64,000 bases of DNA from an uncultured Verrucomicrobiae bacterium (GCA_963765205.1 CAVXVB010000008.1:288001-352000), one strand, 5' to 3'. Shown: positions 18,310-62,958, counted from the first letter of the stretch. Made by a program: numbers and translations. The notes: generated by a model not told the origin, from the letters alone.

Positions 18310-19038
18310 ATGCGCTCAATTCCCACCGATTACGGCCTGCTGCGCGTGGGGTCGCTTGACGACACTTTTCACGCCATCGTGGATGAGTTGCGCGGCGCGG
18401 TGGCGGCGAAGGGCGCGCCGATCACCGTCGGGTTGTCGGGGGGTTCGACGCCGAAGGCGTTTTACCAATGGGCGGTGCGCACGCAGGCGCTGCCCGCCGC
18501 CGTCTGGCAAAATTGCCTCTGGCTGACGAGCGACGAGCGCTGCGTGCCGCTGGCCTCCGACGAATCGAACTTCGGCAATGCCGACCGGCTGCTGCTAACG
18601 CCGCTGGGCGTGCCGGACGCGGCGAAAATTCCGTGGCCGGTTGATTTGCCGCCCGCGGACAGCGCCACGGCTTTCAATAAAATGTGGAACGCCCGCTTAG
18701 GCCCGCAACTGGGTTTCGATGTGTGCTTCCTCGGCATGGGCGACGACGGGCACACGGCGTCGCTGTGTCCGGGCTGCCCGCTCCTCGGCTCCGGGCTGGC
18801 GGACAATTTTGCGGCGGTCGAGTGGCCGGGGCGCGGCTGGCGGCTGACCATTACCGAGGCCGGGCTGGCGCGGTGCGGGCGCGTGGTTGTCATTACCAAC
18901 GGCGCGAACAAGGCCGCGGTGCTCAAAGCGATTCTGCGCGGGCCGTATGACCCGAAAAAACTGCCGTCACAAATCCACCGGGCCTACGCGGCGCGCGTGA
19001 CCTGGCTGGTGGACGAAGCGGCGGCGGCGGAATTATAA
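18310..19038 (+). CDS. pgl: 6-phosphogluconolactonase
   Basis: LSGGSTP, DERCVP...SN, LGMGDDGHTASL, RLTIT. Confidence 0.95.
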   Translation: MRSIPTDYGLLRVGSLDDTFHAIVDELRGAVAAKGAPITVGLSGGSTPKAFYQWAVRTQALPAAVWQNCLWLTSDERCVPLASDESNFGNADRLLLTPLGVPDAAKIPWPVDLPPADSATAFNKMWNARLGPQLGFDVCFLGMGDDGHTASLCPGCPLLGSGLADNFAAVEWPGRGWRLTITEAGLARCGRVVVITNGANKAAVLKAILRGPYDPKKLPSQIHRAYAARVTWLVDEAAAAEL

Positions 19039-19186
19039 AGTTTCGAGTTTCGGGTTTCGAGTTTTCCTCTCCTCGCGTCATTAAGTACTTGAGTTCTCAT
19101 TTCGTCTTGCCGCCCCCGAGTTTCAGCATTCAGCATTCAGCATTCAGCATTCAGCATTCAGCATTCAGCATTCAGCATTCAGCATT
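19038..19186. repeat. Two heptamer arrays of opposite polarity
   Basis: AAGTTTC GAGTTTC GGGTTTC GAGTTTT (19038-19065) and perfect (CAGCATT)x9 (19124-19186). Confidence 0.92.
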
Positions 19187-19239
19187 TCCCTATTTCCCTT
19201 GCGCCAAGCCGCGCAAGGGCGTAGTTTTACCAGTTCTGC

Positions 19240-19803
19240 ATGAGCAAATCGCCCCATACCCACTCCGCCGATGCGGGGGAAAATCCCGCGCCCCAGGCCG
19301 TCCCGTCGCCGGAGACGGGGGCGTTGCTGGCGCAGTTGGACACCGCGCTGGCCGACGCGGCCAAATATAAAGACCAGTGCCTGCGCTCAATGGCGGATTT
19401 GGACAATTTCCGCCGCCGCGCCGCGCGCGACAAGGAGGACACCCGCCGCGCTGCCGCCGCCGCGCTGCTCGAGGACTTGCTGCCTGCGCTCGATAATTTG
19501 CGCCTGGGCCTCCAATCGGCGATGCAAGCACACCCGGAGGCCAAGGCCGTGATTGACGGCATCAAACTCGTCGCCGACCAGTTGCGCGGCGTGCTCACGC
19601 AGCATGGCTTGAAGGAAATCGAGCCGCTGGGCGAGGCCTTCGACGCGAAATTCCACGAGGCCGTCGCCCAGCAACCGAGCGAGCGCATCCCCGAGGGCCA
19701 CGTCATGCAAGTGCTGCGCCCAGGCTATTTGCTGAACGATCGGCTGCTCCGCGCGGCCAGCGTGATCCTGTCGTCCGGGCCGGGGCCGGAAATTAAGAAG
19801 TAA
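19240..19803 (+). CDS. grpE: Nucleotide exchange factor GrpE
   Basis: LRSMADLDNFRRR, LLPALDNL, FDAKFHEAV, GYLLNDRLLRAASV. Confidence 0.96.
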   Translation: MSKSPHTHSADAGENPAPQAVPSPETGALLAQLDTALADAAKYKDQCLRSMADLDNFRRRAARDKEDTRRAAAAALLEDLLPALDNLRLGLQSAMQAHPEAKAVIDGIKLVADQLRGVLTQHGLKEIEPLGEAFDAKFHEAVAQQPSERIPEGHVMQVLRPGYLLNDRLLRAASVILSSGPGPEIKK

Positions 19804-19921
19804 AAGTTAAGAATTAAGCAAGGCCGCCACGAGACCCAACACCATCCCTCCCGTCCATGCGTCAATTTAGTTTTGATTTCGGCATTTTAATTCTTAATTC
19901 ATAACTCTTAATTCTTACTTT
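19790..19921. repeat. Inverted pair of heptamer arrays between grpE and purA
   Basis: AAATTAA GAAGTAA AAGTTAA GAATTAA (19790-19817) / TTAATTC TTAATTC ATAACTC TTAATTC TTACTTT (19887-19921). Confidence 0.85.
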
Positions 19922-19927
19922 TCCCGC

Positions 19928-21481
19928 ATGGCCCTGCCTCCCTTCACCAGCCAGTTAATCGCCGACGTGGGCATCAGCCTCGGCGACGAAGGCAAGGGGC
20001 GCCTCGTCTATGAGATCGCCGCCGAGTTGCGCAGCCAGACGCAGCGCGACGCCGCCGTGGCGATGGTGCTCAAAGTCAACGGCGGCGCGAACTCGGGCCA
20101 CACGGCGGGCGGATTAAAACTAAACCTCTTGCCGGCGGGCGTCATTGACGTCCATGTGCCGATGCTGGCCATCGGCGCGGGCGTGGTCGCCGACCCGCGC
20201 AAATTCTGGTGGGAGCTGGAGCCGCTCGAACGCCGCGGCTACCGTGTGTTCGAGCGCCTGCTCATTGACGAACGCACCATGCTTGCCGATGTCTCCCACC
20301 GGCTGCTCGACCTCGCCTGGGAGGACTACCGCACGCATGTGCTGGGCGAACCGCAACGCGGCTCGACCGGCCGCGGCATCACTCCCGCATACAGCGACGA
20401 AGCCAACCAATGGACCATTTATTACGGGGACTTTCTCGGCCCGCGCGCGGACTTCGAGCGGCGCTTTCGCACTCGCCTGAACCGGGCCTCGCGCATCATC
20501 AAGGACATCTGCCAGGTCATCCCGGAGCATTGGGATATTTTCTTTGACCGCCTCACGCTCGCCGAAACGCGGGCGAATCAGGCCGCCATTGACGCCGGAA
20601 TTTTCCCCAAGGAGGAATTCGACTTCTGCCAGTTCCGCAGCAAGGAGCCTTATTTCCTCAACACCGACCTCCTCACCGAAACCTACTGGCAGGCCGGGCA
20701 GCGGCTGCGGGCGCGCATCGGCGACGTGCGCGAGGCCGCGCTGGCCGCGCTGGCGGGCGGCCAATACATCATCGGCGAATTCGGCCAGAGCTACTGGCTC
20801 GACAAGCGCCGCGGCTTTTCGCCCAATGTCACAGCCTCGCACACTTACACGCCGGAATTTTTTGAGAGCGCGGGCATCCCGTGCCAGCCGGTCCATACCG
20901 TGGGCTGCTGCAAGGCCTACGACACCAAGGTCGGCACGCATGTTTTCCTCACGCGGATCGAAGAGACACACCCGCTCGGCCAATTATTGCGCGAGCTGGA
21001 ATACGGCACCAGCACCGGCCGCCAGCGCATGGTCGGCTGGTTTGACGCCGTGGAAAAAGGCGACGCGCTGCGTTATGGCGGCTTCCAGGATCTCATCATC
21101 AACAAGCTCGACGCGCTCACCTATCGCGGCGCGTGGCGCGACGGCGTATTGCTCGTCTGCACGGGCTACCGCACGCCCGGCGGCGCGCTGACCGCCGGCG
21201 TCCCGCGCGACGACCGCGCGCGCCAGGCCCTGCAACCGGTTTACGCAAAACTGCCTGGCTGGCACGAGGACATCGCGGGCGTCACCTCCTTCGCCAAATT
21301 GCCGGCCAATGCGAAGCGCTATGTTGCGTTTTTGGTAAAAAGCGTGCTCAACGTCGCCACGCGTGGCGGCACCTCGGAAGTCCCCGCGCCGAATCTGCGC
21401 TATATTGGCACCGGCCCCGACCCCGACCAAGTCATCCGCGACGTGCCGGTGACCAAGGAATTGCTGAAGCTGGCGGAATGA
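19928..21481 (+). CDS. purA: Adenylosuccinate synthetase (long, divergent form)
   Basis: LGDEGKG, GGANSGHT, GSTGRGI, EYGTSTGRQRMVGWFD, NKLD, LPANAKRY. Confidence 0.92.
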   Translation: MALPPFTSQLIADVGISLGDEGKGRLVYEIAAELRSQTQRDAAVAMVLKVNGGANSGHTAGGLKLNLLPAGVIDVHVPMLAIGAGVVADPRKFWWELEPLERRGYRVFERLLIDERTMLADVSHRLLDLAWEDYRTHVLGEPQRGSTGRGITPAYSDEANQWTIYYGDFLGPRADFERRFRTRLNRASRIIKDICQVIPEHWDIFFDRLTLAETRANQAAIDAGIFPKEEFDFCQFRSKEPYFLNTDLLTETYWQAGQRLRARIGDVREAALAALAGGQYIIGEFGQSYWLDKRRGFSPNVTASHTYTPEFFESAGIPCQPVHTVGCCKAYDTKVGTHVFLTRIEETHPLGQLLRELEYGTSTGRQRMVGWFDAVEKGDALRYGGFQDLIINKLDALTYRGAWRDGVLLVCTGYRTPGGALTAGVPRDDRARQALQPVYAKLPGWHEDIAGVTSFAKLPANAKRYVAFLVKSVLNVATRGGTSEVPAPNLRYIGTGPDPDQVIRDVPVTKELLKLAE

Positions 21482-21603
21482 AATCCAGTCTGGCCCTATT
21501 CGGGAACAATGCGTGGGAAAGCGACCGTCCTTGTTCCGGGTCAAAAATTATCGCCCCACCGGCTTGCGCCGAAGGCGTGGCTTCGAACAGACTGTCCCGG
21601 AAC

Positions 21604-22014
21604 CTACTGGGCGACCACATTAACGATGAATGCAGTCGAGGTGGGCGCCCCGGTTTCCGGCGTGCCCGTGACCGCGACGCGATAATCGCCGATGGCCGCA
21701 TCCCTCGCCACATTAACTTGGAGCTGCACATCGGGCTTGTCGCTGGCTTTGACCAGGATCGCGCCCGGCGTCACGCTAATGCCATCCGTTTTGGTGTCCA
21801 GTTGCACATCCCGCTTGAAATAGGGACCCCGGTTCAGCAGGACGGTAACGGCGGTGTTGCCGCCCTGTTTGACGGTGTTGGTGGCCGGGACGGTGATGCT
21901 GAATTCTTCGTTAACAGGCACGATGCCGCCGGCGCTGCTGACATTCGTGGCGCTACTGCATCCGGAGGCAGCCAGCAAAGCCGCCAGCGTAAATATCTTG
22001 ATTAGAGTTTTCAT
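21604..22014 (-). CDS. Lipoprotein with Ig-like beta-rich domain
   Basis: Signal peptide with lipobox LAASGC; beta-strand-rich mature part. Confidence 0.75.
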   Translation of the reverse strand: MKTLIKIFTLAALLAASGCSSATNVSSAGGIVPVNEEFSITVPATNTVKQGGNTAVTVLLNRGPYFKRDVQLDTKTDGISVTPGAILVKASDKPDVQLQVNVARDAAIGDYRVAVTGTPETGAPTSTAFIVNVVAQ

Positions 22015-22211
22015 ATTTATTTAAATAATTTGGCGTTGGCTTTGGGCCATGAGCGCCGGGTGTTGGTGAACCGATACGACTCTACGCGGTTGCGCAAAAG
22101 TTTGCCATGGGGCGAAACCCTACCGGAAAGGATGACGATCCCCTCACTGAACGCGGCCTTCGGGTTTGATCGAGCCAACCCTCAACCTGGAGGCGGATTT
22201 CAGTTTCGCGC

Positions 22212-23267
22212 TCATGTCCCCTGGCTGGCGACCTTGAGCAGCACAGGGCTTTCCTCGAGTTCGGGGAATTCCTCGCGCAGGCGGCGGAGGCCCTCCGCCG
22301 AAGGGAAGGCCAGGAGCTTTTGGTCGCCCTCACCCTCGAAGCAGGCGTGGAAGGCCTTGTAATGCTTGTCGTCAATGAACTCCGCCAGCTCGGCGATGAG
22401 GTTGAAATCCTGCGCTTTGTAGTAATTGTATTGCTCCTCAACGGTGGCAAAACCCGCCTTGTGCGTCTTAAACTGGTGTTTTTTGAAGGGGGTGGATTTC
22501 CGGCGCGACGTCTCGTCCAGCGCGAGGTGGTAGAGGAGCGTGTTGGCCACGGCCGCGAAGCGCGGCTCGTCCCGGTGCGCGGTGAAAAAGTCGTGGCGCT
22601 TGCGGGCCAGGGCGATGGTCCAGGCGACCAGCTCCGTCAGCGGCTGTTTGGCGTAGCTCGCGGTCTCGCCCGCGCGGAACTCCTCCGGCGTGGCGGAATT
22701 GAGGTAGCTCAGTTCCTCGTCCACGAATTGATAGACTTGAAAGGCGTCGCCGTGTTTGTCGTACGCGGTGAACTCGCGAAAATGCTTCATGTAGAGTTCG
22801 CGGCTGCGCAGCACTTCGTAGGAGGCGTGGCCAAGGAGGATTTGTGAATCGTCGCCCATGTCCATCACGCGGCGGGCGAAGTTGATGCCCCGGCCGGCCA
22901 CGTTGTTCGCCCCGTTGATATCGCGCACGAGGTTGTCCTGGTTTTCGTTGATGCCGATGCGGACTTTGAAGCGCCACGCCTCGTCCCGCTGCTGCTTGTT
23001 GCGCTCCTGGATGAGTTCCAGCAGCTTGAACGAGAAAATCATGTTGATGTCGAAAAAATTGTAGTTGAGGAAGGCGACGCACATGCCGTCGCCGGTGGGC
23101 AGCATGAGGCGCTCCTCCTTCGGGATTTTCAACTCCTCGAAGACGCGCGCCACCATGGCGTTGAGCGCGTCAATGATGTCGGACTGCGCCTCGACGCTGC
23201 GGTTCTTCGTGTAGCCCACGATGTCCACAAAGGCGTATTTGGCCAGGGCGGTGGTTGCGGTGTTCAT
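22212..23267 (-). CDS. Class III nucleotide cyclase-domain protein with unknown C-terminal domain
   Basis: FVDIVGYT, TGDG, VRIGI, GRGINFARRVM, QILL. Confidence 0.85.
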   Translation of the reverse strand: MNTATTALAKYAFVDIVGYTKNRSVEAQSDIIDALNAMVARVFEELKIPKEERLMLPTGDGMCVAFLNYNFFDINMIFSFKLLELIQERNKQQRDEAWRFKVRIGINENQDNLVRDINGANNVAGRGINFARRVMDMGDDSQILLGHASYEVLRSRELYMKHFREFTAYDKHGDAFQVYQFVDEELSYLNSATPEEFRAGETASYAKQPLTELVAWTIALARKRHDFFTAHRDEPRFAAVANTLLYHLALDETSRRKSTPFKKHQFKTHKAGFATVEEQYNYYKAQDFNLIAELAEFIDDKHYKAFHACFEGEGDQKLLAFPSAEGLRRLREEFPELEESPVLLKVASQGT

Positions 23268-23270
23268 GGT

Positions 23271-23744
23271 TTAATTGAGGTCTCCCCAGTAGAGCGGCTC
23301 CACGACGAAGTCGCCGCCGCGCACACATTGCTTGAGGAAGGCCGGAAAAAAGCGGCAGCCGTCGAGCTGCGCCAACTCAAGCCAGGCGACGCCGACCTGC
23401 CGCCGGTCGCGCCCGGCGCCGGCGACGGGCAGGGCGCCCTCCGGCAGCGCGCAGCGGAAAACGACCTCGACTTGGTGGAAGTGCTGGTGTTCGCGCGCGA
23501 ATCCATGGTTTTTGCCAATGTATTCGCGCACATAGAGGAGGGGGCCGGGTTCGAGCGCGACGCCGATCTCTTCGTGCGTTTCGCGGCGCAAGGCGTCGGC
23601 GAGCGTTTCACCATGGCGCTGGCCGCCGCCGGGAAGGATGAAAAACTCCCCCTCGCGATCGCGCATGGTAATGGCGAGGAGCCGGCCGCCGCGCACCACA
23701 ACCGCGCGGGCGGCAGAGCGAACGCTGGACGATGCAGAAGGCAT
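23271..23744 (-). CDS. Nudix hydrolase
   Basis: Nudix box PGGGQRHGETLADALRRETHEEIG. Confidence 0.92.
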   Translation of the reverse strand: MPSASSSVRSAARAVVVRGGRLLAITMRDREGEFFILPGGGQRHGETLADALRRETHEEIGVALEPGPLLYVREYIGKNHGFAREHQHFHQVEVVFRCALPEGALPVAGAGRDRRQVGVAWLELAQLDGCRFFPAFLKQCVRGGDFVVEPLYWGDLN

Positions 23745-23825
23745 GGGGTAGGTCGGGGTCGAAACCTTAATTGCCCGGAGAGCAAAAGGCAAATGTATTA
23801 GCGCGAAAACATCACCCCAATCCAG

Positions 23826-25310: not shown

Positions 25311-25346
25311 GACAGCGTTGGCATACTTTGATGGATTGCTGCTTTT

Positions 25347-25419: not shown

Positions 25420-25458
25420 AAAAAATCGGGCGAAATAGCCCAACGACGTAATCACCAC

Positions 25459-39251: not shown

Positions 39252-39258
39252 TAGGAAA

Positions 39259-39293
39259 GGATGAAGGATGAAGGATGAGGGATGAAGGATGAA
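39259..39293. repeat. Heptamer array (GGATGAR)x5
   Basis: GGATGAA GGATGAA GGATGAG GGATGAA GGATGAA, 7 nt upstream of the gyrA start. Confidence 0.92.
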
Positions 39294-39306
39294 GAAAGCC
39301 CGCGGG

Positions 39307-39702
39307 TTATTTTTTCGAAACGGGTTCGCGGCGTTTCACGTTTTTCACACAGGTGCTGAGGATGGAAATGAGTTCGTTGGATTCGGTTTGCAGGTCGCGC
39401 AGACGCGGTTCTGGCATCAGGCCGGACTCGATGAGCAACTCCAACCAATATTGGGTTTCATCGAGTTCCTGAAGGGCCAATTCGAGTTTGGCGATGAATT
39501 CGGCATTGGAGCGGCTGCGCCGGGCCTCGCGGTGATGGGCGCCGACCGAAATGCCGGAACGCAAAACCTGCCGGCCGATGACTTGGCCTGCCTGAGTGCG
39601 CGGTAAAGCGGTGGAAAGTTTGATGACACGAAGGGCAAATTGTTTGAGCCGCGCCGAAAGGTCCGGCGCGGTGGGTTGGGTGGGTTTGGTTTCATCCTTC
39701 AT
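39307..39702 (-). CDS. Four-helix-bundle protein (23S rRNA IVS / Avd-like family)
   Basis: RLKQFALRVIKL...IGRQVLRSGISVGAHHREA...EFIAKL...QELDETQYWLELL...ELISIL. Confidence 0.92.
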   Translation of the reverse strand: MKDETKPTQPTAPDLSARLKQFALRVIKLSTALPRTQAGQVIGRQVLRSGISVGAHHREARRSRSNAEFIAKLELALQELDETQYWLELLIESGLMPEPRLRDLQTESNELISILSTCVKNVKRREPVSKK

Positions 39703-39711
39703 CCCTCATCC
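39691..39711. repeat. Heptamer array (YTCATCC)x3, inverted relative to 39259-39293
   Basis: Abuts the gyrB stop and contains the ATG of the four-helix-bundle gene. Confidence 0.9.
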
Positions 39712-42254
<2,543 letters not shown>

Positions 42255-43535: not shown

Positions 43536-43949
43536 TCAGCCGGGCATCATCAACGACAACTGCTCGCGCTCAAACCGGCGGTAAACCTTGAAATCGCGCA
43601 TGTCCACGGTCACAACTTTGGCGCGGGGGAAGAGTTCGCTTAAAACCACGAGGGAGGCGTCGGCGGCGTCCATGCGCTCGAATTTCAACATCAGTTCCTG
43701 GGTGCGCCGCAAATGTTCCGGCCAAAGCGGAAACAGCACCAGCGCGCCGTGGCGCACCAAATCCAACAAGGCATGAGACTGGGAGGTGTTGCCGCCCAGA
43801 TGATGGCAGGCTTCGCCCAAGACAATTTCGGTTGTGTGCAGCCGGCCCCGGCGACCGGAAAGCGTCCGGTGGCTCCATTCGTGCCATTGGTCGGCTGCAT
43901 CCAGCCAGCCGATGAGCGGTCCGGCATCCACTATGGTTTCAACGACCAT
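43536..43949 (-). CDS. PIN-domain (VapC) toxin
   Basis: IVDAGPL...DQWH...VLGEA...MDAADASLV...TVDMRDFKVYR. Confidence 0.9.
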   Translation of the reverse strand: MVVETIVDAGPLIGWLDAADQWHEWSHRTLSGRRGRLHTTEIVLGEACHHLGGNTSQSHALLDLVRHGALVLFPLWPEHLRRTQELMLKFERMDAADASLVVLSELFPRAKVVTVDMRDFKVYRRFEREQLSLMMPG

Positions 43950-44831: not shown

Positions 44832-45054
44832 GCGACCAGCCAAACGTCCGCGCCGCGAATAGGCAACCCCTCAGCGCGAAAAACCCGCAAAATTCACCCG
44901 TTTGCCATATACTGAACAAATTAGCATTATTAGGCTTGCACTGCGCATTTCTCCCATTATTTTCCAAGATTGTTGCTGGCGTTTTCCCGCCTCTTCTATT
45001 TCTTAATTCAGCAGTCAGCATTCAGAACTCCTCATTCTTAACTCCCTCCCTCCC

Positions 45055-48641: not shown

Positions 48642-48797
48642 GAATGGAAGATGGCCGGTGGAAAATGGAAAAAATCATTCGCCAGGCGGGGACTGATTTG
48701 TTTTACTTACCCCTCCCCCACCCCGCCGTGCAGGCTTGAGGCTGTTTGCTGTGCGGTTCCTGCGTTTTTTCCATCTTCCATTTTCCATCTTCCATTT
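48642..48797. repeat. Inverted pair of heptamer arrays
   Basis: GAATGGA AGATGGC CGGTGGA AAATGGA / TCCATCT TCCATTT TCCATCT TCCATTT then C-ATG. Confidence 0.85.
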
Positions 48798-48798: not shown

Positions 48799-49485
48799 AT
48801 GAGTGAGCTTTTCGATGTCGTGGACGAACACGACCGCGTGCTGCGCCGCGAGACGCGCGCGGAAGTCCACCGCCAGCGCCTGCTGCACCGCGCCGTGCAC
48901 ATCCTCGTGTTCAATGCGCGCGGCGAAGTTTACCTCCAGCGGCGCTCCGCACAGAAGGACACCTACCCGCACCGATGGACGACCTCGTGCTCCGGCCATG
49001 TGGACGCGGGCGAGGACTACGATACGGCGGCAGTGCGCGAACTGGCGGAGGAACTGGGGTTGGCGGGGGCGAAGGTGAAGAAGGCGACTAAAGGGACTAA
49101 GGCACTGAGGCACAAAGGCACAGAGGAAAGGCCGGGAAAAGACAGAGCGCCAAAAAACCAGGCGCATTCTTCCCAATCTGCAACTTGCAACTTGCAACTT
49201 GCCGCCAACAACCTGCAACCTGCAACCCAACTCGAAACCCGAAACTCGAAACCCGAAACTATCGTCCCATTTGTAAAACACCCCCCCTGCCGCGAGACCG
49301 GCTGGGAATTTATCTGGATTTACACCCTGACCACCAACGCGGCGCCCGCGCCCGACCCGGGGGAGATTTCCGAAGGACGCTGGATCTCACCCGACGAACT
49401 CGACGCGTGGATGAGCCGCGAGCCAAAGGCCTTCACGCCGTCCTTTATACTGGTGTGGAAATTGTGGCGGGAGGCGCAGGAGTGA
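48799..49485 (+). CDS. Nudix hydrolase (IDI/YfcD-like) with ~65-aa repeat-derived insertion
   Basis: [38 protein letters not shown]; insertion ~49065-49260. Confidence 0.88.
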
Positions 49486-50317: not shown

Positions 50318-52513
50318 TATAGCCCGGCCTTGGCGCGGAACTGGTCGAAACTTTCGGGGTCGAGTTCCTCGATAAACCGGCTCGGTTCGAGGACGGCGGG
50401 CGGGCCGCCCTGGCTGACGATGCGCGGGTAGAGTACATACAGTTCGTCCCGCGCGCGCGTGGCCGCGACGTAGAAGAGGCGGCGCTCCTCCTCAACGTCG
50501 CCGGAATCAATGGCGCGCTTGAGCGGCAGCAGGCCGTCGGCTGCGCCGATAATGAAGACGACGGGGAACTCCAGCCCCTTGGCCTGGTGGATGGTGGTGA
50601 GGCGCACGGTGTCGGCGTCCGGCTCGACGGCGCGGTCGCTTGTTTCGGAATTGAGGAGCACCAGTTGCGCGAGCAATTCGTTCATGTCCGCGAAGCGGGA
50701 GGCGAAGCCGATGATGCTGTCGAGGTCTTCCCGGCGCGACTCCCAGTTGTCGTAGATGTTGCGGAGGTAATCGCCATACCAACCTTCGATGGCGAGGCGG
50801 ACGACATCGGCGGGCGAGGGGGCGGAGCCGGAAGTGTGGAGTGTGGAGTGTGGAGTGCGAAGTGGAGGACTGGAACCGTTTTTAATTTCGACATCAAACA
50901 ACGCTCCTTGCGTTCCGGGCATTCCTTCTTCATTGGGCGTTGGATGTTGAGTGTTGGATGTTGGATGTTGTCCGGGATGAAGTTGCGCCACGCCCAACTG
51001 GGCGAGGGTTTCCTCGAGATTTTGGAGGGTCAGCGCGAGGTCCTTGAAGTCGGCGCGGGCCTCGGCGGGGAGTTTCGCGGCCACGGATTCCGCCGTCAGC
51101 GCGCCAATCAAAGTTTTGCCCTGCGCGCGTGCGGTTTGCTGGGCGGCGGCCAGCGCGCTCTCCGCCTTGCGCGGGCCGACCTTGGGCAGCAGCGACGCGA
51201 GGCGGATGAAGGCCACGGTGTCGCGCGGGTTGTGCGCGAAGCGCAGGTGCGCGGTCAGGTCGCGCACATGCGCCTGCTCAAAGAACCGCACGCCGCTGGT
51301 GATGGTGAAGGGCACGCCGGCGCGCGACAGCTCGATTTGCATATCCATCGCCTGGTAATGCGCGCGGTAGAGCACGGCGATGTCGCGCAGCGCGACGCCG
51401 TCCTGGTCGTGCAATTCGCGCAGGCGCGCGATGACGAAGGCGGCCTGCTGCCGGGTGTCGAGCGCGGCGATGACGACGGGCCGGCGCCCCATTTTGCGCA
51501 CCGGGCGCAGGTGCTTGTGGAAGCCCTCGGCGACGTGTTGATGATCAAGGATGCCGTTGGCGAAGCACAGCACCTCGGGCGTGCTGCGGTAATTGATTTC
51601 GATTTTGAAAATCCGCGCGCCGGGGTGCCGCTCGGGGAAGCGGCGGATGTTGTCGAAGTTCGCGCCACGCCAGGTGTAGATGCACTGCGCGTCGTCGCCC
51701 ACGGCCATGAGCTGGTGCTCGGCGGCCAGGAGGTCCACGATTTCCGACTGCAATTTGTTGGTGTCCTGGTATTCGTCCACGAGGATGTGGCGGAACTGCC
51801 TCTGATAATGGGCGCGGGCGGCCTCGTCGCGTTGCAAAACCTGGAGCCAGTATTCGAGGAGGTCGTCATAATCGGCTACGTGCTTCTCGCGCTTGGCCTG
51901 CTGGTAGGCGGCGGCAAATTTATGCAGCGGGCCGGAAATTTCCTCGAGCCACGGGTATTTTTCGGCAATGACCTCGCCGAGGGTCTGGCGGGTGTTGCGC
52001 GCGTAGCTGATGACCTCGGCGACCACGCGGGGCTTGGGATGCTCCTTGTGTTTGGTGAAGGCCGGGTCCACGGCGCGGATCACGTCGCCAAATAGCGCGT
52101 CGGCGTCGCCCTCGTCGAGGATGGTGAAGTTCGGCGGGAGGCCGGCGGCCTCGCCGTGGCGGCGGAGCACACGCTGGCCCACGCTGTGGAAGGTGCCGCC
52201 CCAAAAGCGCGCGCGGGGCACGCCGGTCAGGGTCCTCGACGCGGCCGAGCATCTCGCGCGCGGCTTTGTTGGTGAAGGTCAGGAGCAAAATCTGCCACGG
52301 CTGCGCGCCTTGTTCGAGGAGCCAGGCCACGCGGTAGGTCAGTGTGCGCGTCTTGCCGGAGCCGGCGCCGGCGAGCACCAACGCGGGGCCGGGCGGGGCG
52401 GTGACGGCGGCCAGTTGGTCCTCGTTCAGGGCCGCAGCATAATCAATCGGCGCGAAGGCCCCCGGCGCCAGTCGCGCCAGCATGCTCTCGTTGCTTTCGA
52501 TTTCGCCAGCCAT
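50314..52513 (-). CDS. uvrD: UvrD/PcrA-family helicase, 1-bp frameshift at ~52230, internal repeat insertion
   Basis: [48 protein letters not shown]. Confidence 0.92.
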
Positions 52514-52609
52514 GGCCCTACCGTATCGCGCCCGGCCACCCCCGGCTAGAAAAAAGCCGCGTTGAATTTTTTTCTTCTTAATTCTTCAATCTTAATTCTT
52601 AATTCGGCC

Positions 52610-53626
52610 ATGCCCTTTGACCCCGCCGACCTGCGCGTCGCCCCCGGCGCGCATGACCCCCTCCGCCACCACCGCCCCGAGGCCAGCCTCGGCTTGGGCG
52701 ACAAGGACGCCGCCGTCGAGGCCCTCGCCGAACTGCTGCCCGAATTGCGCAGCCTGCACGACCGCCTCAACGCGCAGCGCACCTGGTCCTTCCTCATCAT
52801 CCTGCAGGCGATGGACGCGGCGGGCAAGGACGGCATCATCAAGCACGTACTGACCGGCTTCAACCAGCAGTCGTGCCATGTGACGAGTTTTTCCGCGCCC
52901 GTCGGGGCGGAACTGACGCACACGTTTTTGTGGCGCTGCGTGGCGGCGCTGCCGGCGCGCGGGCACATCGGCGTCTTCAACCGCTCGTATTACGAGGAAG
53001 TGCTCGTGCCCCGCGTGCGGACGGAATACCTCGTCTATCAGGGTCTGCCCCCGCCCTGCCTGCGCGGCGACATCACGGATTTGGGGCAGGGAGGGAAAAG
53101 AATGGAAGAGGGAAAATGGAAAATGGAAAAAACCGGAACGCAAAATAGTTTTGCCGAGTTCGAGGCTAAACTCGCCGCGCGCAACACGAAACCGCCTTCG
53201 CTCCCACCGCCGGCTTTCTGGCAAGCGCGACTGGACGACATCAACACCTTCGAACGCCACCTGGCGCGCAACGGCACCCGCATCGTCAAATTCTTCCTGC
53301 ACCTTTCGCGGGAGGAGCAAAAACGGCGCTTTTTCACCCGCATCGAAGACACCGCGCGCAACTGGAAATTCACCCCCTCGGACGTGCGCGACCGCCGCTA
53401 CTGGGACAAATACCACCACGCCTATTCTGAAATCCTGACGACGACCAGCACGCCGTGGGCACCGTGGTATGTCATCCCGGCCGATTACAAATATGTGGCG
53501 CGCCTGGCCGTGGCGAAAGTTCTCGTCCGCGAACTCAGCGAGCTGCACCCGCACTATCCGCGCTTGGACAAAGCCGGCCGCAAAGCCCTCATCAAAGCGA
53601 GGAAAGAATTGGAAAAGGAAGGTTGA
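52610..53626 (+). CDS. ppk2: Polyphosphate kinase 2 family protein
   Basis: QAMDAAGKDG, FNRSYYEEVL, KFFLHLS, PWYVIPAD. Confidence 0.92.
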   Translation: MPFDPADLRVAPGAHDPLRHHRPEASLGLGDKDAAVEALAELLPELRSLHDRLNAQRTWSFLIILQAMDAAGKDGIIKHVLTGFNQQSCHVTSFSAPVGAELTHTFLWRCVAALPARGHIGVFNRSYYEEVLVPRVRTEYLVYQGLPPPCLRGDITDLGQGGKRMEEGKWKMEKTGTQNSFAEFEAKLAARNTKPPSLPPPAFWQARLDDINTFERHLARNGTRIVKFFLHLSREEQKRRFFTRIEDTARNWKFTPSDVRDRRYWDKYHHAYSEILTTTSTPWAPWYVIPADYKYVARLAVAKVLVRELSELHPHYPRLDKAGRKALIKARKELEKEG

Positions 53627-53703
53627 ACAAAAGCCTTGGCCGGAGCCAAGGAATTTGTCATTGTCTCTTGCTTAGGCGCGGCCGAGGGCGTCCGCAGGAC
53701 CAC

Positions 53704-53793
53704 GGAGAGGTGACAGAGTGGCCGAATGTGCCTGACTCGAAATCAGGTGTGGGCGAAAGTCCACCGGGGGTTCGAATCCCTCCCTCTCCGCCA
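53704..53793 (+). tRNA. tRNA-Ser (anticodon CGA)
   Basis: GGAGAGG acceptor stem, CCTGA-CT CGA AA-TCAGG anticodon arm, long variable arm, GGTTCGAATCC, encoded CCA. Confidence 0.96.
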
Positions 53794-54964: not shown

Positions 54965-56177
54965 GGGCGCCTCTATTAACCCCCAAGCCGCTTGACATTG
55001 ATAAGACAAGGTGACAGAACGTGACATGCACTACCGAAAATCCGAGTCGCAAGGAGGTTTGTTCGATTATCACCAGCATTGCGCCGGGTTGGCGGCGCGG
55101 GGCACGAGTCTGGACCGGCTGAAGGCGGCGGTGGACTGGGAAGCCTTCCGCGCCCCACTCGAGCGCCACCTGGCCTATGAGGACGGGGCCAAAGGCGGGC
55201 GTCCGGCGTGGGATCCGGTGCTGATGTTCCAGGTGCTGGTGCTGCAAAAGTTCCACGGGCTGAGCGACGCGCAGACCGAGTTTCAAATCCTCGATCGGTT
55301 CAGCTTCCAGCGGTTCATGGGCCTGCGGGCGGGCGACGCCGCGCCGGACGAGAAGACGATCTGGGTGTTCAAGGAGCGCCTCGGCCCGGACGGGGTGCGG
55401 GCGTTGTTCGAGTTGTTCAACGCGCAACTGGCCGCGCGGGGGCTGATCGGCCAGCAGGGCAAGATCGTGGACGCCACGTTTGTCGAGGCCCCGCGCCCGC
55501 GCGCCGCGCGCCAGCCGGAGCATCCCCCCGCCGCGCGGCAGCAGGACGCCGACGCCCGCTGGACCGAGCAAGGCGGCCAGGCGCACTACGGTTACAAAAA
55601 CCACGCCAAGGCCGACGCGCGCAGCAAGCTCGTGGCGGACTACACGGTGACCCCCGCCAACACCCACGACAGCCAAAAACTCGACGAGCTGGCCGCGCCC
55701 GGCGACCGCGTCATTTACGCCGACAGCGCCTACAGCGGCGGGCCCATCGCGAAACAACTCGCGACCAAAAAGCTCGCCGGGCGCATCCTGGAAAAAGCGC
55801 GGCGCGGCCATCCGCTGACCCGCGCGCAGGAAAAACGCAACCGCCGCCAAAGCGCCGTCCGCAGCCGGGTCGAGCACGTCTTCGCCCGGCTGGCCCACTG
55901 GCGGGCAGACTGGTTCCGCCGCAAAGGTTTGGCCCGCGCCCGTTTTGAAATCGGCCTGGCCAACCTGGTTTACAACCTTGACCGCTACGCCTGGCTGCAA
56001 AGTGCCGGTTAGAGCCGGACGAATCGCGCCCCGCTGCCGGTTCAGAGCAAGAAACCCACTCATCATCCCGCCAAACCACCGCGGGCAACTCATGCCGGGC
56101 GCTTCCCTCCCGGATGCCGCTAGAAAATCACGCAAAATTACCCTTGTGTGGCCCAAGCCAAGTTGTTAGAAGTGCCC
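54965..56177 (+). mobile_element. IS5-family insertion sequence (~1.2 kb)
   Basis: Imperfect TIRs GGGCGCCTCTATTAAC / GTTGTTAGAAGTGCCC; flanking duplication TATA (up to CTATAG). Confidence 0.92.
55011..56012 (+). CDS. IS5-family DDE transposase
   Basis: GGRPAWD, PDEKTIW, IVDAT, YGYKNH, YADSAY, RSRVEHVF. Confidence 0.95.
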   Translation: MTERDMHYRKSESQGGLFDYHQHCAGLAARGTSLDRLKAAVDWEAFRAPLERHLAYEDGAKGGRPAWDPVLMFQVLVLQKFHGLSDAQTEFQILDRFSFQRFMGLRAGDAAPDEKTIWVFKERLGPDGVRALFELFNAQLAARGLIGQQGKIVDATFVEAPRPRAARQPEHPPAARQQDADARWTEQGGQAHYGYKNHAKADARSKLVADYTVTPANTHDSQKLDELAAPGDRVIYADSAYSGGPIAKQLATKKLAGRILEKARRGHPLTRAQEKRNRRQSAVRSRVEHVFARLAHWRADWFRRKGLARARFEIGLANLVYNLDRYAWLQSAG

Positions 56178-57425: not shown

Positions 57426-57465
57426 GGGATACGTTTTAGAGTATCCCTGAATCAATGAGAATTAT

Positions 57466-58044
57466 CTAAGCGTGACGATTTACAGATTTATTGTCACGGT
57501 TTGCGTGCAATAACGCCCGACGGCGTTTTTCCTCTTCTGCTTGTCGCAAGACTTCTCTTAGCTGGGGCAGTTTCTGGCGTAATTCTTTACGGGCCTTACG
57601 AACGTCTCCTTTTGTGACTTCGTAACCCCATTTGCCAAGTGCTTCAATTATGTCGGCTGCGCTGGGTTCAACGGTTCTGTCTAATTTCGCACCTACTTTA
57701 TCCCGCAACAAACCAAATTGGAAACTTTGCAAATATGCACGGATGAGGCCGACTTTGTTAATTTTACCATCCTCTGTTTTCAGCATTTTATTCACTTCTT
57801 TGCGTGCAAGAAACAGCGCATTAAGCACCACGTCAAAATCCTTCGCATTGAAATAGCGGTCAATTTCATCTCGGTAGGATTTTGCTGTTATCAGTGCAGG
57901 ATGACAGGCAATTTGAACAACCAACCCCACCAAGCCGTCAGGCCAGCCCTCTTTCGGCGCTGACAGACTTTTATTCAGCTTATCAATTATCGGTTGCTGA
58001 ATGAAGAAACCGTGCTGACGTGGAATTGGTTGTGGCCTACTCAT
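57466..58044 (-). CDS. Hypothetical protein coupled to integrase
   Basis: 192-aa low-GC ORF with ATGA overlap on the integrase stop. Confidence 0.65.
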   Translation of the reverse strand: MSRPQPIPRQHGFFIQQPIIDKLNKSLSAPKEGWPDGLVGLVVQIACHPALITAKSYRDEIDRYFNAKDFDVVLNALFLARKEVNKMLKTEDGKINKVGLIRAYLQSFQFGLLRDKVGAKLDRTVEPSAADIIEALGKWGYEVTKGDVRKARKELRQKLPQLREVLRQAEEEKRRRALLHANRDNKSVNRHA

Positions 58045-59168
58045 TTTGCGCCGCCTTGCGCCAACGCGGGCGCGGTTCCTTCCATGTCCACCGTAGGGCG
58101 TTCAAGAAGGGCGGCATAATGAGATTCCGTGACGGTGACGGTGGAATGGCCCAGCAATTCTTTGGCGGCATAGAGGCCAAACTGGGACGCGACAATTGCG
58201 CCGTAGGCTTTCCGCAACTCATGCACCGGCTTGGGGGCGGTGATGCCGTGCGCGCGGAGCCAATCGGCCAAGCCTTCAAAGACGGTGCGGGCGCGGCGCT
58301 CCGGCTTGTCCCGGCCCGGCGTGAGGCCGTCAGGGACAACGTAGGGGCCAAGGCTGGATACGGCGCGCACTTCCGCCAGCACGCCGGGCGGGAGGGGAAC
58401 AAAGCGGTGACGGCCCGACTTGGTTTCGTGTTCGTCGCGCGAGGTGCAAAGCACGCCGTTTTCCAACAGGTCTTCCTTGCGGAGCCATGCGGCTTCTTGC
58501 TGGCGCAACCCGGCACAGAGGCAGAGCAGGAACGCCGCCCATTGGCCGGGTTCTTTTTCGGGCAACTCTCTGCGGGCGGCTTCAATCAATTCGCGGACAA
58601 ATTGCACCGAGTAACCGCGAAATGGCTCCGGCGGCGGGGCGTAGGGGATGCCCGCCTTAAAGGGCGTCTCCCCCACCGTCAGGCCGCGCGTGCGGTAAAA
58701 GACAAGGGCGGACTCTGAAAACACGGCGGATGCCTGCCGGACAATGCTGGCAACACTCCGGCGCGAAAGGGCTTTGACGGCGGGCAGGCGGGGGAAATTG
58801 CCGATCTTGGCGGCAAGGTCTTCCACCGTGTCCACATTCAGGCGGTTGGAAAGCATTTTGAGCCAGCCGATATTTTCGCGGATAGTGCGCGGTCGGAGCG
58901 GGCGCGGGCGCTCGGTATTCATCTCTCGGTATAGCTCTATGACGCGCGCCAAGGGCGTGCGCTTGCCCGGCAAGGTGGGTTTGACCTTCTCCCAGGGTTC
59001 GTTGCGCAGCTTGCGCTCTAAGTGCTTGGCGCGTTGCGTGGCGGCGGCTTTGTTGGGCGTGCCCAGCCCTTTGACGATGCGTTTGCCGCCAATGCGAAAC
59101 TCCACGGCGAAGTTGGGGCTTTCACCAGTGAGGCCGTTGCGGGTGTATTTTGGTTTGAATAAATACAT
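58041..59168 (-). CDS. Tyrosine recombinase/integrase
   Basis: Catalytic R (GLRQQE), K (TKSG), HELR, LGH, Y (SHY). Confidence 0.95.
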   Translation of the reverse strand: MYLFKPKYTRNGLTGESPNFAVEFRIGGKRIVKGLGTPNKAAATQRAKHLERKLRNEPWEKVKPTLPGKRTPLARVIELYREMNTERPRPLRPRTIRENIGWLKMLSNRLNVDTVEDLAAKIGNFPRLPAVKALSRRSVASIVRQASAVFSESALVFYRTRGLTVGETPFKAGIPYAPPPEPFRGYSVQFVRELIEAARRELPEKEPGQWAAFLLCLCAGLRQQEAAWLRKEDLLENGVLCTSRDEHETKSGRHRFVPLPPGVLAEVRAVSSLGPYVVPDGLTPGRDKPERRARTVFEGLADWLRAHGITAPKPVHELRKAYGAIVASQFGLYAAKELLGHSTVTVTESHYAALLERPTVDMEGTAPALAQGGAK

Positions 59169-59361
59169 GGCTAAGGGTGGTAGAGGGTGAATCAGGTTTG
59201 CCGTGCTTATGTAATTGCTTATGGCAGGATTCCGGCTCCGGTTCAATACCTATTTTTCACAATCTTTCACGATGAAGTTTGGATTTCTGCTATGGAATTG
59301 CGGCGATTATCGCGCAAAGAAGGCCATAACGTGGAAAGGTAGAAAAGGCGGAATACATGAA

Positions 59362-59410
59362 TCGAAATCAGGTGTTGGCGAAAGTCCACCGGGGGTTCGA
59401 ATCTCCGCCA
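59362..59410 (+). repeat. att site: tRNA-Ser 3' fragment with internal deletion
   Basis: TCGAAATCAGGTGTTGGCGAAAGTCCACCGGGGGTTCGAATCTCCGCCA; one mismatch and 8 nt missing relative to the tRNA. Confidence 0.92.
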
Positions 59411-59550
59411 CCCAGGAAAATCCAGGCCGACAGAGGACATCGGAAAGTTTTTTTGGCGGAGCGAAGGGTGCCCGCCGTAGTCCCGCTGCGCGGGACGAAG
59501 GAGGGCGTGCTTGGCCTTGCCTGCTCCTCTGATTGCTGTAATATTTCGCC

Positions 59551-59790
59551 ATGTTCCACGTTTACCGATTGACCAGCATTCCCTTTCCCCAACGGCATTA
59601 TATCGGCTTTACCACGGACTTGCGCCAGTGGCTTGAGGAACACAATGCAGGAAAGAACATTTCCACGAAGCCCTTTGCCCCCTGGGCGCTTGATTTTTAT
59701 GCCGCGCTCCAGGACAAGACCAAAGCTTGCGCCTTCGAGCGTTACCTGAAAACCGGCTCTGGCTCGGCTTTTGGCCATAAGCGATTGTGG
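59551..59790 (+). pseudogene. Stand-alone GIY-YIG nuclease, probably inactivated
   Basis: HVYRL...HYIGFTTDLRQWLEEHN...FERYLKTGSG; W at the conserved R; no stop at the usual end (ORF runs to 60138 into trmL). Confidence 0.7.
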
Positions 59791-59800
59791 TCGCCCGTCC

Positions 59801-60373
59801 TCAGTTCTTTGGCGCGGCTGTGCGCCTCGAAGCGCTTCGAAACACGTTCCGGATCGTGCCTTGTGGCGCGAAGTGGGGCGTGTTCGTCCGGCAACCCTCG
59901 CCTCGCTTGCTCCCACTGGGGCGCAATTGGCGCAGGGCCTCATAAACGCCAATGCCGGCGGCGGTTGAAAGATTCAACGAGCGCAAGGCGGGGTCGGGTT
60001 GCGGGATGCGGACGCGGCGCGCGTCACCCGCCCAATCATGCAGCCAGGCCGGCGCGCCGGAGCTTTCGTTGCCAAAGAGGAGGCCGTCTTCGTCGGCATA
60101 GGGCACGTCCCAGAAGGTTTGCGTGGCGTGAGTGGTAAAGAGCCAGAGGCGTTTTGGCCCACGGTCGCTTTGCTGGAAGGCGGCCCAGTCGGCGTGATGA
60201 ACGAGGTCGAGCGATTTCCAGTAATCCATGCCGCTGCGCTTGAGATGCCGGTCGGTGATACGAAATCCGAGCGGATGAATCAAATGCAGGCGCGAGCGCG
60301 TCAGCGCGCAGACGCGGCCGATGTTGCCGGTGTTCTGCGGGATTTCGGGCTGGAACAAAACGATATGTAACAT
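59801..60373 (-). CDS. trmL: tRNA (cytidine/uridine-34 2'-O)-methyltransferase
   Basis: PEIPQNTGNIGR, RSGMDYW, FGNESSG, RSLNLS, YEALRQ; ~35-aa atypical C-terminal extension. Confidence 0.93.
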   Translation of the reverse strand: MLHIVLFQPEIPQNTGNIGRVCALTRSRLHLIHPLGFRITDRHLKRSGMDYWKSLDLVHHADWAAFQQSDRGPKRLWLFTTHATQTFWDVPYADEDGLLFGNESSGAPAWLHDWAGDARRVRIPQPDPALRSLNLSTAAGIGVYEALRQLRPSGSKRGEGCRTNTPHFAPQGTIRNVFRSASRRTAAPKN

Positions 60374-60385
60374 TGCGCCTAATTC

Positions 60386-60459
60386 ACCGCAAAAACGTCA
60401 AGAGCGCAAAGGAGGATTATTTTAGAATTAGTTCTTAGCGACCTTCGCGACTTTGCGGT
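60386..60459. repeat. Second copy of the 26-bp-arm palindromic element
   Basis: ACCGCAAAAACGTCAAGAGCGCAAAG / CTTAGCGACCTTCGCGACTTTGCGGT. Confidence 0.75.
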
Positions 60460-60468
60460 GAAAAGTTT

Positions 60469-60942
60469 TTATTTCCACGCCCGGATGGTGCGTTGGGCTT
60501 CGCGCAGTTCGGCTTTGCGGCGGAGGGTCTCGCGCTTGTCGGCGTGGTTCTTGCCTTTGCAGAGGGCGATTTCGGCCTTGGCGAGGCCTTCCTTGAAATA
60601 GATGCGCAGGGGGATGACAGTCATACCCTGCATTTCGGCGGCGGCTTTGATCTTGATGATTTCGTTGGCGTGCAGCAGGAGTTTGCGCGGGCGGCGCGGC
60701 GGGTGGTTGTGGATGTTACCGAGAGTGTATTCGGCGATGTGCGCGTGGTGCATCACCGGCGCGCCGTTTTCGATGCGCACAAAGGCGTCGGCCAACTGGG
60801 CCTGGCCCTGGCGGAGGGACTTCATTTCCGTGCCGCGCAGGACGATGCCGGCCTCAAAGCGCTCGCCCACGTGGTAGAGGTGGAAGGCCTTGGCGTTGCG
60901 GATTTCCGTGAAGCGGGTGGAGTCTTTGGGCGCGGCGGACAT
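60469..60942 (-). CDS. smpB: SsrA-binding protein
   Basis: EAGIVLRGTEMKSLR, RKLLLH, IPLRIYFK, GKNHADKRE. Confidence 0.96.
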   Translation of the reverse strand: MSAAPKDSTRFTEIRNAKAFHLYHVGERFEAGIVLRGTEMKSLRQGQAQLADAFVRIENGAPVMHHAHIAEYTLGNIHNHPPRRPRKLLLHANEIIKIKAAAEMQGMTVIPLRIYFKEGLAKAEIALCKGKNHADKRETLRRKAELREAQRTIRAWK

Positions 60943-61025
60943 GGTGATGGGCGGGCCGGATTGCCCTGGCCGGGCGCCGGCGGGCGGCCACCGCATCCCC
61001 CCACTCCGGCGGAGCGCGGCGCGAC

Positions 61026-61244
61026 TTACCGGTCTTTGGGTTCGATGCCGTCCCAGAGTTCGTAGTCAATCTTGCCCTCGATGACCTCGCGCAGGGCGAT
61101 GTCCTCCGGCTCCAGCTTTTCGAGCGATTCCACGAGGGGCTTCATGCCGAATTTAAGCTGTTTGACCCGGCGCGACACCACGTTGATGAGGATGTTCGGG
61201 TCGGTGATGACCTTCTGGGCTTCTTTTAGGTATTCGTCTCTCAA
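61026..61244 (-). CDS. rpoZ: RNA polymerase omega subunit
   Basis: LINVVSRRVKQL...PEDIALREVIEGKI; TTG start. Confidence 0.88.
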   Translation of the reverse strand: MRDEYLKEAQKVITDPNILINVVSRRVKQLKFGMKPLVESLEKLEPEDIALREVIEGKIDYELWDGIEPKDR

Positions 61245-61429
61245 GGGTTTCTCCTGGTGGTGATGATAGGTGGGCCGCCGGTGAGGGCGAAAGGGGTCAC
61301 AATGAAGAGCGGCGGGGGGCTTGGCAACCTCCTTTTTGGGCCCTCCTACGCCAAGGCTACGGAGGGCTGGCGGTTAACCACCCCGGGCGGAGTGGGGGGG
61401 GCGGCGGCGTTGTGGGAAGTAGGGGGGGT

Positions 61430-61755
61430 GCTGATTGCTGAATTCGGAATGCGGAGTTCGGAATTCTGAGTGCGGAATAGCGGGCAGTGTGTGTGGGGGG
61501 GATTTTTGAATGCTGATTTCTGATTGCTGAATAAGGAATGCGGAATGGAGGCTGCCATGGATTGCGGGGAAGCCGAAGGAGCCGGGAGAGGGACGGGTGA
61601 AATGGTGGCGGGAGTATAAGCTAAATGGGGCGGGCGCGCAAATGCTCGGTTGGCTGCGTTGGATCGGTTGGCTGGGTTTGATGCGTTGGAAGGAGGAGGG
61701 AAGTGTGGAGGGTGAAGTGTGGAGTGCGGAGTTCGGAATTCGGAGTGCGGAGTAA
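61430..61755. repeat. Cluster of degenerate heptamer arrays
   Basis: GAATTCG GAATGCG GAGTTCG GAATTCT GAGTGCG; GAATGCT GATTTCT GATTGCT; AAGTGTG GAGTGCG GAGTTCG GAATTCG GAGTGCG. Confidence 0.8.
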
Positions 61756-61842
61756 AGGTTGGGAGCGGGGGAAGCACGGGGACAGCATTGAATGATCGAG
61801 GCAAGAAGGTGCAGCCTCAGCCTGACCAACTCTGACCCCCTC

Positions 61843-62769
61843 TCATTTCCTTTTGATGGCATAAATAGTAGCGATTACTAACACTACTGCCAACAGTCCA
61901 TACCAAGGGTTAAACCAAAAAGCTGACACTGGCACTTGTGGCGAGCTCGATGAGCTTTCGGAAGGAATTGATGAAGGGCTGAAGCCAGTTGGGGTTGTGC
62001 TGCTGAGCGCACCAGAGGCGCTTGGCTGTTTTGATGTAGTTGTTTGCATTGTGCCTGAGGCCAATTGGTCCCGAGCTTGCAAGGCCTGACTTCTATAATA
62101 ATTGGTGTCATGTTCAGGAATAGACGGAGAGTGCGGAATCCGCGGCGGTGGATCCATGGAAACATTCTCGTAGCCCGGCGGTGGCTTGATCGGTTCCGTT
62201 AAAAACTTCATCGTCTCATCAGGATGGGGCCAGATGATAGTGGCCATAACTTCCGCTCGTGCGTCTTGCATGGAGGGAACAAGCTGAAGCCTAACCTGGA
62301 CTTCAATACCGTTTATTGTGGCATCACCTGCCCATCCAAGAGTTTTGCGACCAGGACTATCGAGCGCTTTGATATAATCGTCCAAACGATTTGTGGCGAT
62401 ACCGATAGATTGACAGATTTTCTTTGCTTGCTGGGCGGCATCTTCCAGTGGCTCAGATTCGCAGAATGCATCAAAACTGCTGAGCTCATTCCCCGCAAGT
62501 ACGGAAATATCAACATTTCCTACAATTATGCCCATACTCACATTTCCAGGAAGAATTATTTTAAGATTCTCGTTGCCAAGCTCGCAATGCATATTCTCCA
62601 ATCCTTGTAAATGCCAGGGCCTTAACCCAGCATCAAAAATTGCCTTTAGATTACTGCTCTGACTAAAATCTATTGTGCGAACAACATCGCTTTCCGTTGC
62701 AGCCGTCAACCATTGCGGCCATAAGATAATTCCCGCAAGAAGAATTAAAATCTGCCTAAAATAATTCAT
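61843..62769 (-). CDS. Low-GC secreted protein with Ser/Thr/Pro linker and C-terminal TM anchor
   Basis: Signal peptide; tail WFNPWYGLLAVVLVIATIYAIKRK. Confidence 0.75.
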   Translation of the reverse strand: MNYFRQILILLAGIILWPQWLTAATESDVVRTIDFSQSSNLKAIFDAGLRPWHLQGLENMHCELGNENLKIILPGNVSMGIIVGNVDISVLAGNELSSFDAFCESEPLEDAAQQAKKICQSIGIATNRLDDYIKALDSPGRKTLGWAGDATINGIEVQVRLQLVPSMQDARAEVMATIIWPHPDETMKFLTEPIKPPPGYENVSMDPPPRIPHSPSIPEHDTNYYRSQALQARDQLASGTMQTTTSKQPSASGALSSTTPTGFSPSSIPSESSSSSPQVPVSAFWFNPWYGLLAVVLVIATIYAIKRK

Positions 62770-62909
62770 GTGATGGGTGCAAGAGAGGGTCAGGCTGCGG
62801 CTTCTTACCTAAATTTTGAGAGAATGGATCAAGTTTTGGGCGGGAGGGAGGGTGGAAATGAATTTGGCCTGGTAGGTAGGGCGGAGCGAGGCAAAATTGG
62901 GGGGGCGGG

Positions 62910-62958
62910 GATTGTTGATTTCTGAATGCTGAATTCTGAGTGCGGAGTGCGGAATATG
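62910..62958. repeat. Heptamer array
   Basis: GATTGTT GATTTCT GAATGCT GAATTCT GAGTGCG GAGTGCG GAATATG. Confidence 0.8.

Follow-up and report, generated by a model that had tools for sequence, protein, structure and literature searches.

The window analysed here is a 64,000-nucleotide stretch from an uncultured Verrucomicrobiae bacterium (GCA_963765205.1 CAVXVB010000008.1:288001-352000), in which short tandem arrays of heptamers lie in gene junctions and within a few coding regions. At the junction of gyrB and gyrA, two such arrays bracket a gene for a four-helix-bundle protein; we refer to a gene of this kind together with its flanking arrays, or arms, as a cassette. A descriptive link between the dispersed arrays and cassettes is very likely. 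The explanation that we favour, and consider probable, treats the arrays as free arms belonging to protein-plus-repeat cassettes, which resemble REPIN/RAYT systems without being members of them.

The original prediction held that arrays of different sequence share one grammar, RRRTNNN (three purines, T and three free bases), and that they arise by a shared mechanism or are recognised by one protein. Every array position that it gave is confirmed in the sequence, those at 48642 and 19790 in degenerate form. Runs of at least four RRRTNNN units, which it expected to exceed shuffled sequence, number 15 in the window, where 50 local shuffles average 0.08; the 4.0-Mb genome has 234 of them, compared with 4, 6 and 2 in three shuffles. 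When the same pattern was scanned through the genome at control periods from 5 to 12 other than 7, only 1-15 runs were found. A scan blind to the grammar gave 316 period-7 arrays with 73 consensus units, and 5-87 arrays at other periods. A reversed-pattern control was uninformative, as many units fit both the forward and the reversed reading. Short-read contigs from runs X1 and X2, of which X1 is possibly the source sample, match the gyr cassette and the inserts in the NUDIX, uvrD and ppk2 genes of the window. The features of the window are as follows.

19038..19064, plus strand: purine arm of the GAGTTTC family, starting from the pgl stop codon; absent in three of five relatives, other units in two
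19122..19187, minus strand: GAATGCT arm of nine units, pyrimidine on the plus strand, preceding the conserved grpE upstream region
19790..19817, plus strand: degenerate GAATTAA arm across the grpE stop
19887..19917, minus strand: partner GAATTAA arm immediately 5' of the purA start
39257..39294, plus strand: GGATGAA cassette arm, on the transcript the pyrimidine arm right before the gyrA ATG
39307..39702, minus strand: four-helix-bundle gene between gyrB and gyrA (TIGR02436, 88 bits; PF05635, 68 bits)
39691..39713, minus strand: GGATGAA purine cassette arm, abutting the gyrB stop used by relatives and containing the cargo gene's start codon
42371..42454, minus strand: two stacked arms of the AGGTAGA and GGATGAA families, before the start of an aldose-epimerase-family gene
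45003..45044, minus strand: mixed in-phase arm of GAATTAA, GAATGCT and GAGTTCT units, before recA
48642..48797, no strand assigned: gene-less inverted AAATGGA pair with a degenerate left arm, between a DUF486 gene and the NUDIX start
49075..49262, plus strand: NUDIX in-frame insert, with an 8/9-mer purine run, a filler and two stacked pyrimidine heptamer arms
50832..50970, plus strand: in-frame arms GAGTGTG and GGATGTT within uvrD/pcrA
52575..52605, minus strand: GAATTAA arm ahead of the ppk2 start
53100..53131, plus strand: in-frame AAATGGA arm within a variable ppk2 loop
61440..61753, plus strand: three arms of GAATTCG, GAATGCT and GAGTGCG units, between a minus-strand gene and rpoZ
62910..62958, plus strand: mixed arm with its units in phase, 3' of a hicA-like gene

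Cassettes in this genome and across phyla

The genome, which is 92% complete and in which our own home-made caller finds 3210 genes, holds seven TIGR02436 (PF05635) genes, all of them between protein genes. Six of the seven lie in co-directional operons, with a purine arm at the stop of the upstream gene and a complementary arm at the start of the downstream gene. Each bracketed gene has its own unit (GGATGAA, AAATGGA, GAGTTTC, GAATGCT, AGATTTA or an 8-mer); the seventh gene has one weak arm only, and two of the seven carry an in-frame stop. The same layout, with 9-mer arms, surrounds the single gene of the GxxExxY nuclease family (PF13366; G000:C8:182461-182736, where G000 denotes the genome of the window), which lies outside the window and is seemingly frameshifted near its end. 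As free repeats, the cassette units are among the most frequent 7-, 8- and 9-mers of the genome, and at lengths 8 and 9 the cassette word ranks first. In the gyr cassette transcript the arms are predicted to form a stem of more than 23 bp (z -5.7), which would bring the upstream stop beside the downstream start. A solved homologue of the window's four-helix-bundle protein, PDB 2RLD, contains five chains.

The arrangement extends well beyond this lineage. Among the best 80 of 263 confirmed related loci, drawn from many phyla, heptamer arrays were found upstream of the gene at 58 and downstream at 61, against 8 of 150 control windows, and array pairs were complementary to within one base in 44 of 52 cases, compared with 8.7 after permutation. 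Among the matches listed, the named genome whose locus comes closest to the four-helix-bundle locus of the window is that of an uncultured member of the Opitutales. Unit types match protein clades in the window's family, and a subclade of 15 proteins from at least five phyla (support 94/93) has GATTTT-type arms in common. On a tree of 55 proteins, restricted to rows that have arms, lack stops and are not short, the class of unit requires 14 changes, against 22.5 in shuffles within phyla (minimum 15).

Anatomy, grammar and turnover of the arms

Free arrays share the anatomy of the cassette arms: they are blocks of about 28 nt whose purine strand is directed away from the adjacent gene. Most are intergenic (405 of 468). 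Over a set of 2362 genes, the pyrimidine arm precedes starts in 100 cases and the purine arm in 15, while after stops the purine arm is found 53 times and the pyrimidine arm 20 times. The outer end of the arm lies within 20 nt of the gene in 148 of 288 cases and the inner end in 25, where random placement gives 41.9. Neighbouring arrays are ordered purine-then-pyrimidine in 37 pairs, in the reverse order in 9 and in like orientation in 31, and both arms share a unit in 14 of the 37 purine-then-pyrimidine pairs, against 2.2 (maximum 7) under permutation. Polarity, inverted pairing and copies within genes had not been noticed in the original prediction.

Block length is fixed, in heptamers and 9-mers alike. 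Runs of three, four and five units number 25, 43 and 3 for AAATGGA and 21, 30 and 4 for GGATGAA, and the 9-mer CACGGAGAA occurs in 52 runs of three units and 2 of four, such that heptamers peak at four units, 9-mers at three, and both drop steeply above about 27-28 nt. The four-unit peak and the polarity hold for AAATGGA, GGATGAA and GAGTTTC, all units without a G-tract. In 32 of 44 GGATGAA arrays the variant unit GGATGAG sits at one fixed index, and slippage is displayed by some long pure runs of 9-23 units. The claim that simple slippage of one motif does not account for the arrays is supported, as is their shared origin. The fillers between paired arms are mostly 3-230 nt long with 47% GC. 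Two candidate origins were rejected: local inverted duplication of arms, for which a mirror test was negative, and capture of fillers from the genome, where the first 24 of 346 hits were inspected and involved other repeats only.

The proposed grammar fares differently within the genome and beyond it. RRRT fits 270 of the 316 period-7 arrays (mean 218, maximum 266, in within-unit shuffles) and RRRY fits 309; among the 73 distinct units, many of which are variants of a few families, RRRT fits 46 against 37.8 shuffled and RRRY 67 against 57.5. By distinct unit, the excess of RRRT and RRRY in this genome is modest. Across phyla, where we oriented 44 distinct units by the gene that they flank, RRRT is not above composition (24 against 21.3 shuffled; RRRY 36 against 34.0). 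What is conserved there, in an unsupervised alignment, is an A (97%) after a G (77%), with an information content of 3.98 against at most 3.02 in 40 shuffles. Since this A is near-invariant while RRRT stays at the level of composition, what is constrained is a strand rich in purines and with GA at its core, rather than RRRT. The mixed arrays at 45003 and 62910 keep their phase as had been described, but RRRT is broken in one of six and two of seven units, respectively. Arrays of 8- and 9-mers share the layout of the heptamers.

Orthologous sites in the relatives of the window's genome (G251, G252, G253, G254 and G256) reveal rapid turnover. Between gyrB and gyrA, the cassette is present in G000, G253 and G256, whereas G251 and G252 have other arrays and G254 retains both arms in decayed form but lacks the gene; G254 also has no perfect GGATGAA block. 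Arm pairs that differ in unit occupy the pgl-grpE spacer of three genomes, and in three more the spacer is free of them. In G254 a loop of the NUDIX protein is short; in each of G000, G251, G252, G253 and G256 it holds a different in-frame insert, with a purine run first and a pyrimidine run last. Loops of uvrD and ppk2 turn over similarly. Genes with internal arrays number 18 by a strict screen, of which about 14 seem genuine. We read the in-gene inserts as translated, because every insert seen has an open frame in G000 and its relatives; splicing or bypass was set aside on the same ground, among the inserts seen, with no genome-wide search for frame-breaking cases. One ppk2 short-read contig lacks the arm, which is suggestive only; contigs from X3 and X4 are fragmentary. 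The ppk2 region at 52980-53230 is a family-wide insertion of about 50 residues that is absent in distant homologues, and arms occur there in some genomes.

Several further observations concern the surroundings of the arrays. One-base frameshifts relative to all relatives occur at the gyrB 3' end (39735-39860), where a short-read contig has one gap, and in uvrD (near 52220); both lie away from arrays and are likely assembly errors. The mixed arm at 62910 directly adjoins the hicA-like gene, which with its upstream partner occupies 62966-63405, and a PIN-domain gene lies at 43536-43949. An IS5-family transposase gene (55026-56012) has no arms beside it. The window also carries a PolX-like DNA polymerase gene (10685-11989), below the curated cut-off and possibly a repair polymerase, and, after ppk2, a tRNA-like gene (53700-53790) that is conserved in relatives. 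Elsewhere in the genome, a separate repeat family of about 90 nt with 9-mer-like arms is nested in a GAATGCT arm pair (G000:C11:109650-109850) and recurs in at least six other places.

Free copies and their cognate cassettes

The original prediction proposed correlating array counts with four-helix-bundle gene counts across genomes, and a link between the two is supported by 250 genomes of the phylum, in which six-unit matches and gene counts correlate (Spearman rho 0.59; within-family permutation p 0.0002), as well as by the arms on six of the seven genes here. The correspondence is also specific to the unit. For seven units in ten genomes of the family, with the cassettes' own matches removed, the genome richest in copies is, for all seven, one that has the matching cassette, and the median number of free copies is 23.5 where the cassette is present against 0 where it is not (margin-preserving p 0.001, or 0.03 without G000). 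These p-values are optimistic, because the patterns and unit classes were picked post hoc from cassettes and the genomes are related to one another and incomplete.

Our explanation would have each protein lineage likely recognise its own repeat word and likely drive the copying or upkeep of the matching free arms. By analogy with Avd, a pentamer would bind RNA or single-stranded DNA with roughly one unit per subunit, an arrangement that would set both the four-unit length and the GA core. The weakest step is the copying itself: the bound protein may direct repair enzymes of the host to insert whole arms at gene boundaries and in loops that tolerate them. Neither a reverse transcriptase nor a transposase lies alongside the arms, and the fillers are not cassette remnants.

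A number of observations weigh against this explanation. No transposase was found in the cassette, and PF00078 reverse transcriptase has no match in this 92%-complete genome. The fillers of gene-less pairs are mutually unrelated, with genome matches to other repeats alone in the 24 hits inspected, so these pairs are unlike plain deletion derivatives of cassettes, and the two arms of a pair resemble one another no more closely (0.863) than random arms with the same unit (0.885). With relatives only 75-85% identical, neither a target duplication nor a genuinely empty site could be pinned down. AAATGGA is the commonest free family, and its cassette gene has an in-frame stop. Of 326 arrays, 116 are identical to one of the five heptamer cassette units of the genome and 189 are within one mismatch, leaving 137 that are at least two bases from every one of them. 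The correspondence also fails in places: G251 has a GAGCAGG cassette and zero free copies, G253 and a further genome of the family, G259, have 15-18 AAATGGA matches with no AAATGGA cassette found, the correlation is absent from one family (f20), fewer than ten six-unit matches occur in 75 of the 165 genomes that have a strong gene match, and 9 of 99 array-rich genomes lack a strong gene match.

Relation to known systems and alternative explanations

Heptameric short tandemly repeated repetitive (STRR) sequences are reportedly present in cyanobacteria. A close published parallel is the set of GGGAATC and GGGGA(C/T)T repeats of Xanthomonas and Nostoc, which, in PMC4692102, are likewise tandem heptamers, mostly intergenic, with a four-unit mode, the purine strand after stops, its antisense before starts, and inverted pairs. 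That account describes one unit per genome and quadruplex folding of the consensus, whereas the genome studied here combines many units, each linked to its own cassette, and the commonest of them lack GGG and with it the G-tract and quadruplex potential of that type. The word "helix" does not occur in its main text, and no link to the protein family is made there. Of 23 metagenome loci in which GGGAATC arms lie 365-395 nt apart, 16 have a four-helix-bundle gene between the arms; several of these cassettes (L120-L142) apparently lie between accB and accC, as named from end motifs. The intervening sequence (IVS) in the 23S rRNA of Coxiella burnetii (PMC4990558) shares PF05635 (by the family name S23p), an open reading frame within a terminal stem, of 28 bp there and predicted here, and tandem heptamers, GACAGAT, before the reading frame. 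It resides in rRNA, in contrast to the mRNA operons and hundreds of dispersed gene-less arms described here. Both the Xanthomonas GGGAATC repeat and the Coxiella IVS fit the cassette class.

Other systems share parts of the architecture. According to PMC3116915, REPIN/RAYT genes are tied to their own repeat families, several per genome, and inverted gene-less doublets occupy extragenic space, as do those that are over-represented here. Their repeats are palindromic, however, and the gene is a tyrosine transposase, whereas the arms are tandem 7-9-mers and the cargo is a non-catalytic four-helix bundle (PF05635) or a PD-(D/E)XK-type nuclease (PF13366); unlike REPIN/RAYT, moreover, fillers here are unrelated and copies also occur in coding loops. 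The Ssn/NTS pairing (PMC11893778) likewise joins a small protein to cognate dispersed repeats with family-specific sequence specificity, which the cassette proteins would share. Ssn is a GIY-YIG single-stranded DNA nuclease with demonstrated activity, and the cargo families here differ from it. Miniature inverted-repeat transposable elements and non-autonomous insertion sequences would be expected to have a target-site duplication and a conserved interior; the interiors of the arm pairs are unrelated to one another, and the relatives have diverged too far for a duplication to be fixed. Diversity-generating retroelements comprise a reverse transcriptase with template and variable repeats; the genome has neither a PF00078 match nor such repeats. 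Their accessory protein Avd is one that we take to be related to PF05635. The cassette protein is likened to Avd, a pentameric RNA-binding protein that contacts an RNA stem-loop via all five protomers (10.1101/2023.10.23.563531). In the literature searched, which consisted mostly of papers outside subscription, no paper ties dispersed arrays to these cassettes.

We considered how the arrays might be explained without mobile arms. If the protein were an RNA-binding regulator, selection could keep the arms as binding or RNase III sites rather than as selfish copies; the tight placement at stops and starts, the presence of arms in core operons, the decay of arms where the cognate gene is lost and the cleavage of the Coxiella IVS stem by RNase III in vitro (PMC4990558) are all in keeping with this. 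Against it stand the fast turnover, with different units or none at orthologous positions in close relatives, the in-frame copies in protein loops, and pairs that are no better as stems than chance; we regard this explanation as unlikely, if less so than those that follow. In another explanation, polymerase slippage makes the simple sequence repeats, gene conversion homogenises them, and four-helix-bundle genes merely land in repeat-rich spacers. Slippage is seen in some long pure runs, and the reported excess of heptamer repeats cited in PMC4692102 would accord with it. The steep drop above four units, the fixed position of the variant unit, the complementary arms and the tracking of protein by unit across phyla make it improbable.

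The original prediction's own proposal, a single factor that reads or writes RRRT every 7 nt, finds some footing in the modest RRRT and RRRY excess of the genome and in the GA core conserved across phyla. RRRT is nonetheless at the level of composition across phyla, units are lineage-specific and 8- and 9-mer arms share the architecture, and we now consider a universal factor very improbable. Another candidate is the G-quadruplex, which has been explored for the GGGAATC repeats of Xanthomonas and Nostoc; the consensus folding and the four-unit preference reported in PMC4692102 speak for it. The same four-unit peak and polarity in units that lack a G-tract leave this as the least probable of the explanations; quadruplex formation is not general and could be a side property of G-rich units.

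The favoured explanation, that of free arms spread from protein-plus-repeat cassettes, connects two things so far without explanation, the excess of heptamer repeats in bacteria and the function of a very large protein family. It assigns a predicted ligand to every paralogue, which renders both the repeats and the protein family testable, and the four-unit preference is given a reason other than quadruplex folding. The arms, moreover, repeatedly write new sequence into enzyme loops. In a more tentative extension, which we hold possible though doubtful, the cassettes would constitute a class of mobile element without transposase or reverse transcriptase, in which a pentamer reads a four-unit word through a paralogue-specific code and directs blocks of about 28 nt to stops, starts and loops; from such a class would stem the majority of heptamer repeats in bacteria, the rRNA intervening sequences that bear open reading frames, and new disordered protein segments. 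A paralogue-specific code, if true, would represent a new sequence-specific scaffold for binding RNA or single-stranded DNA.

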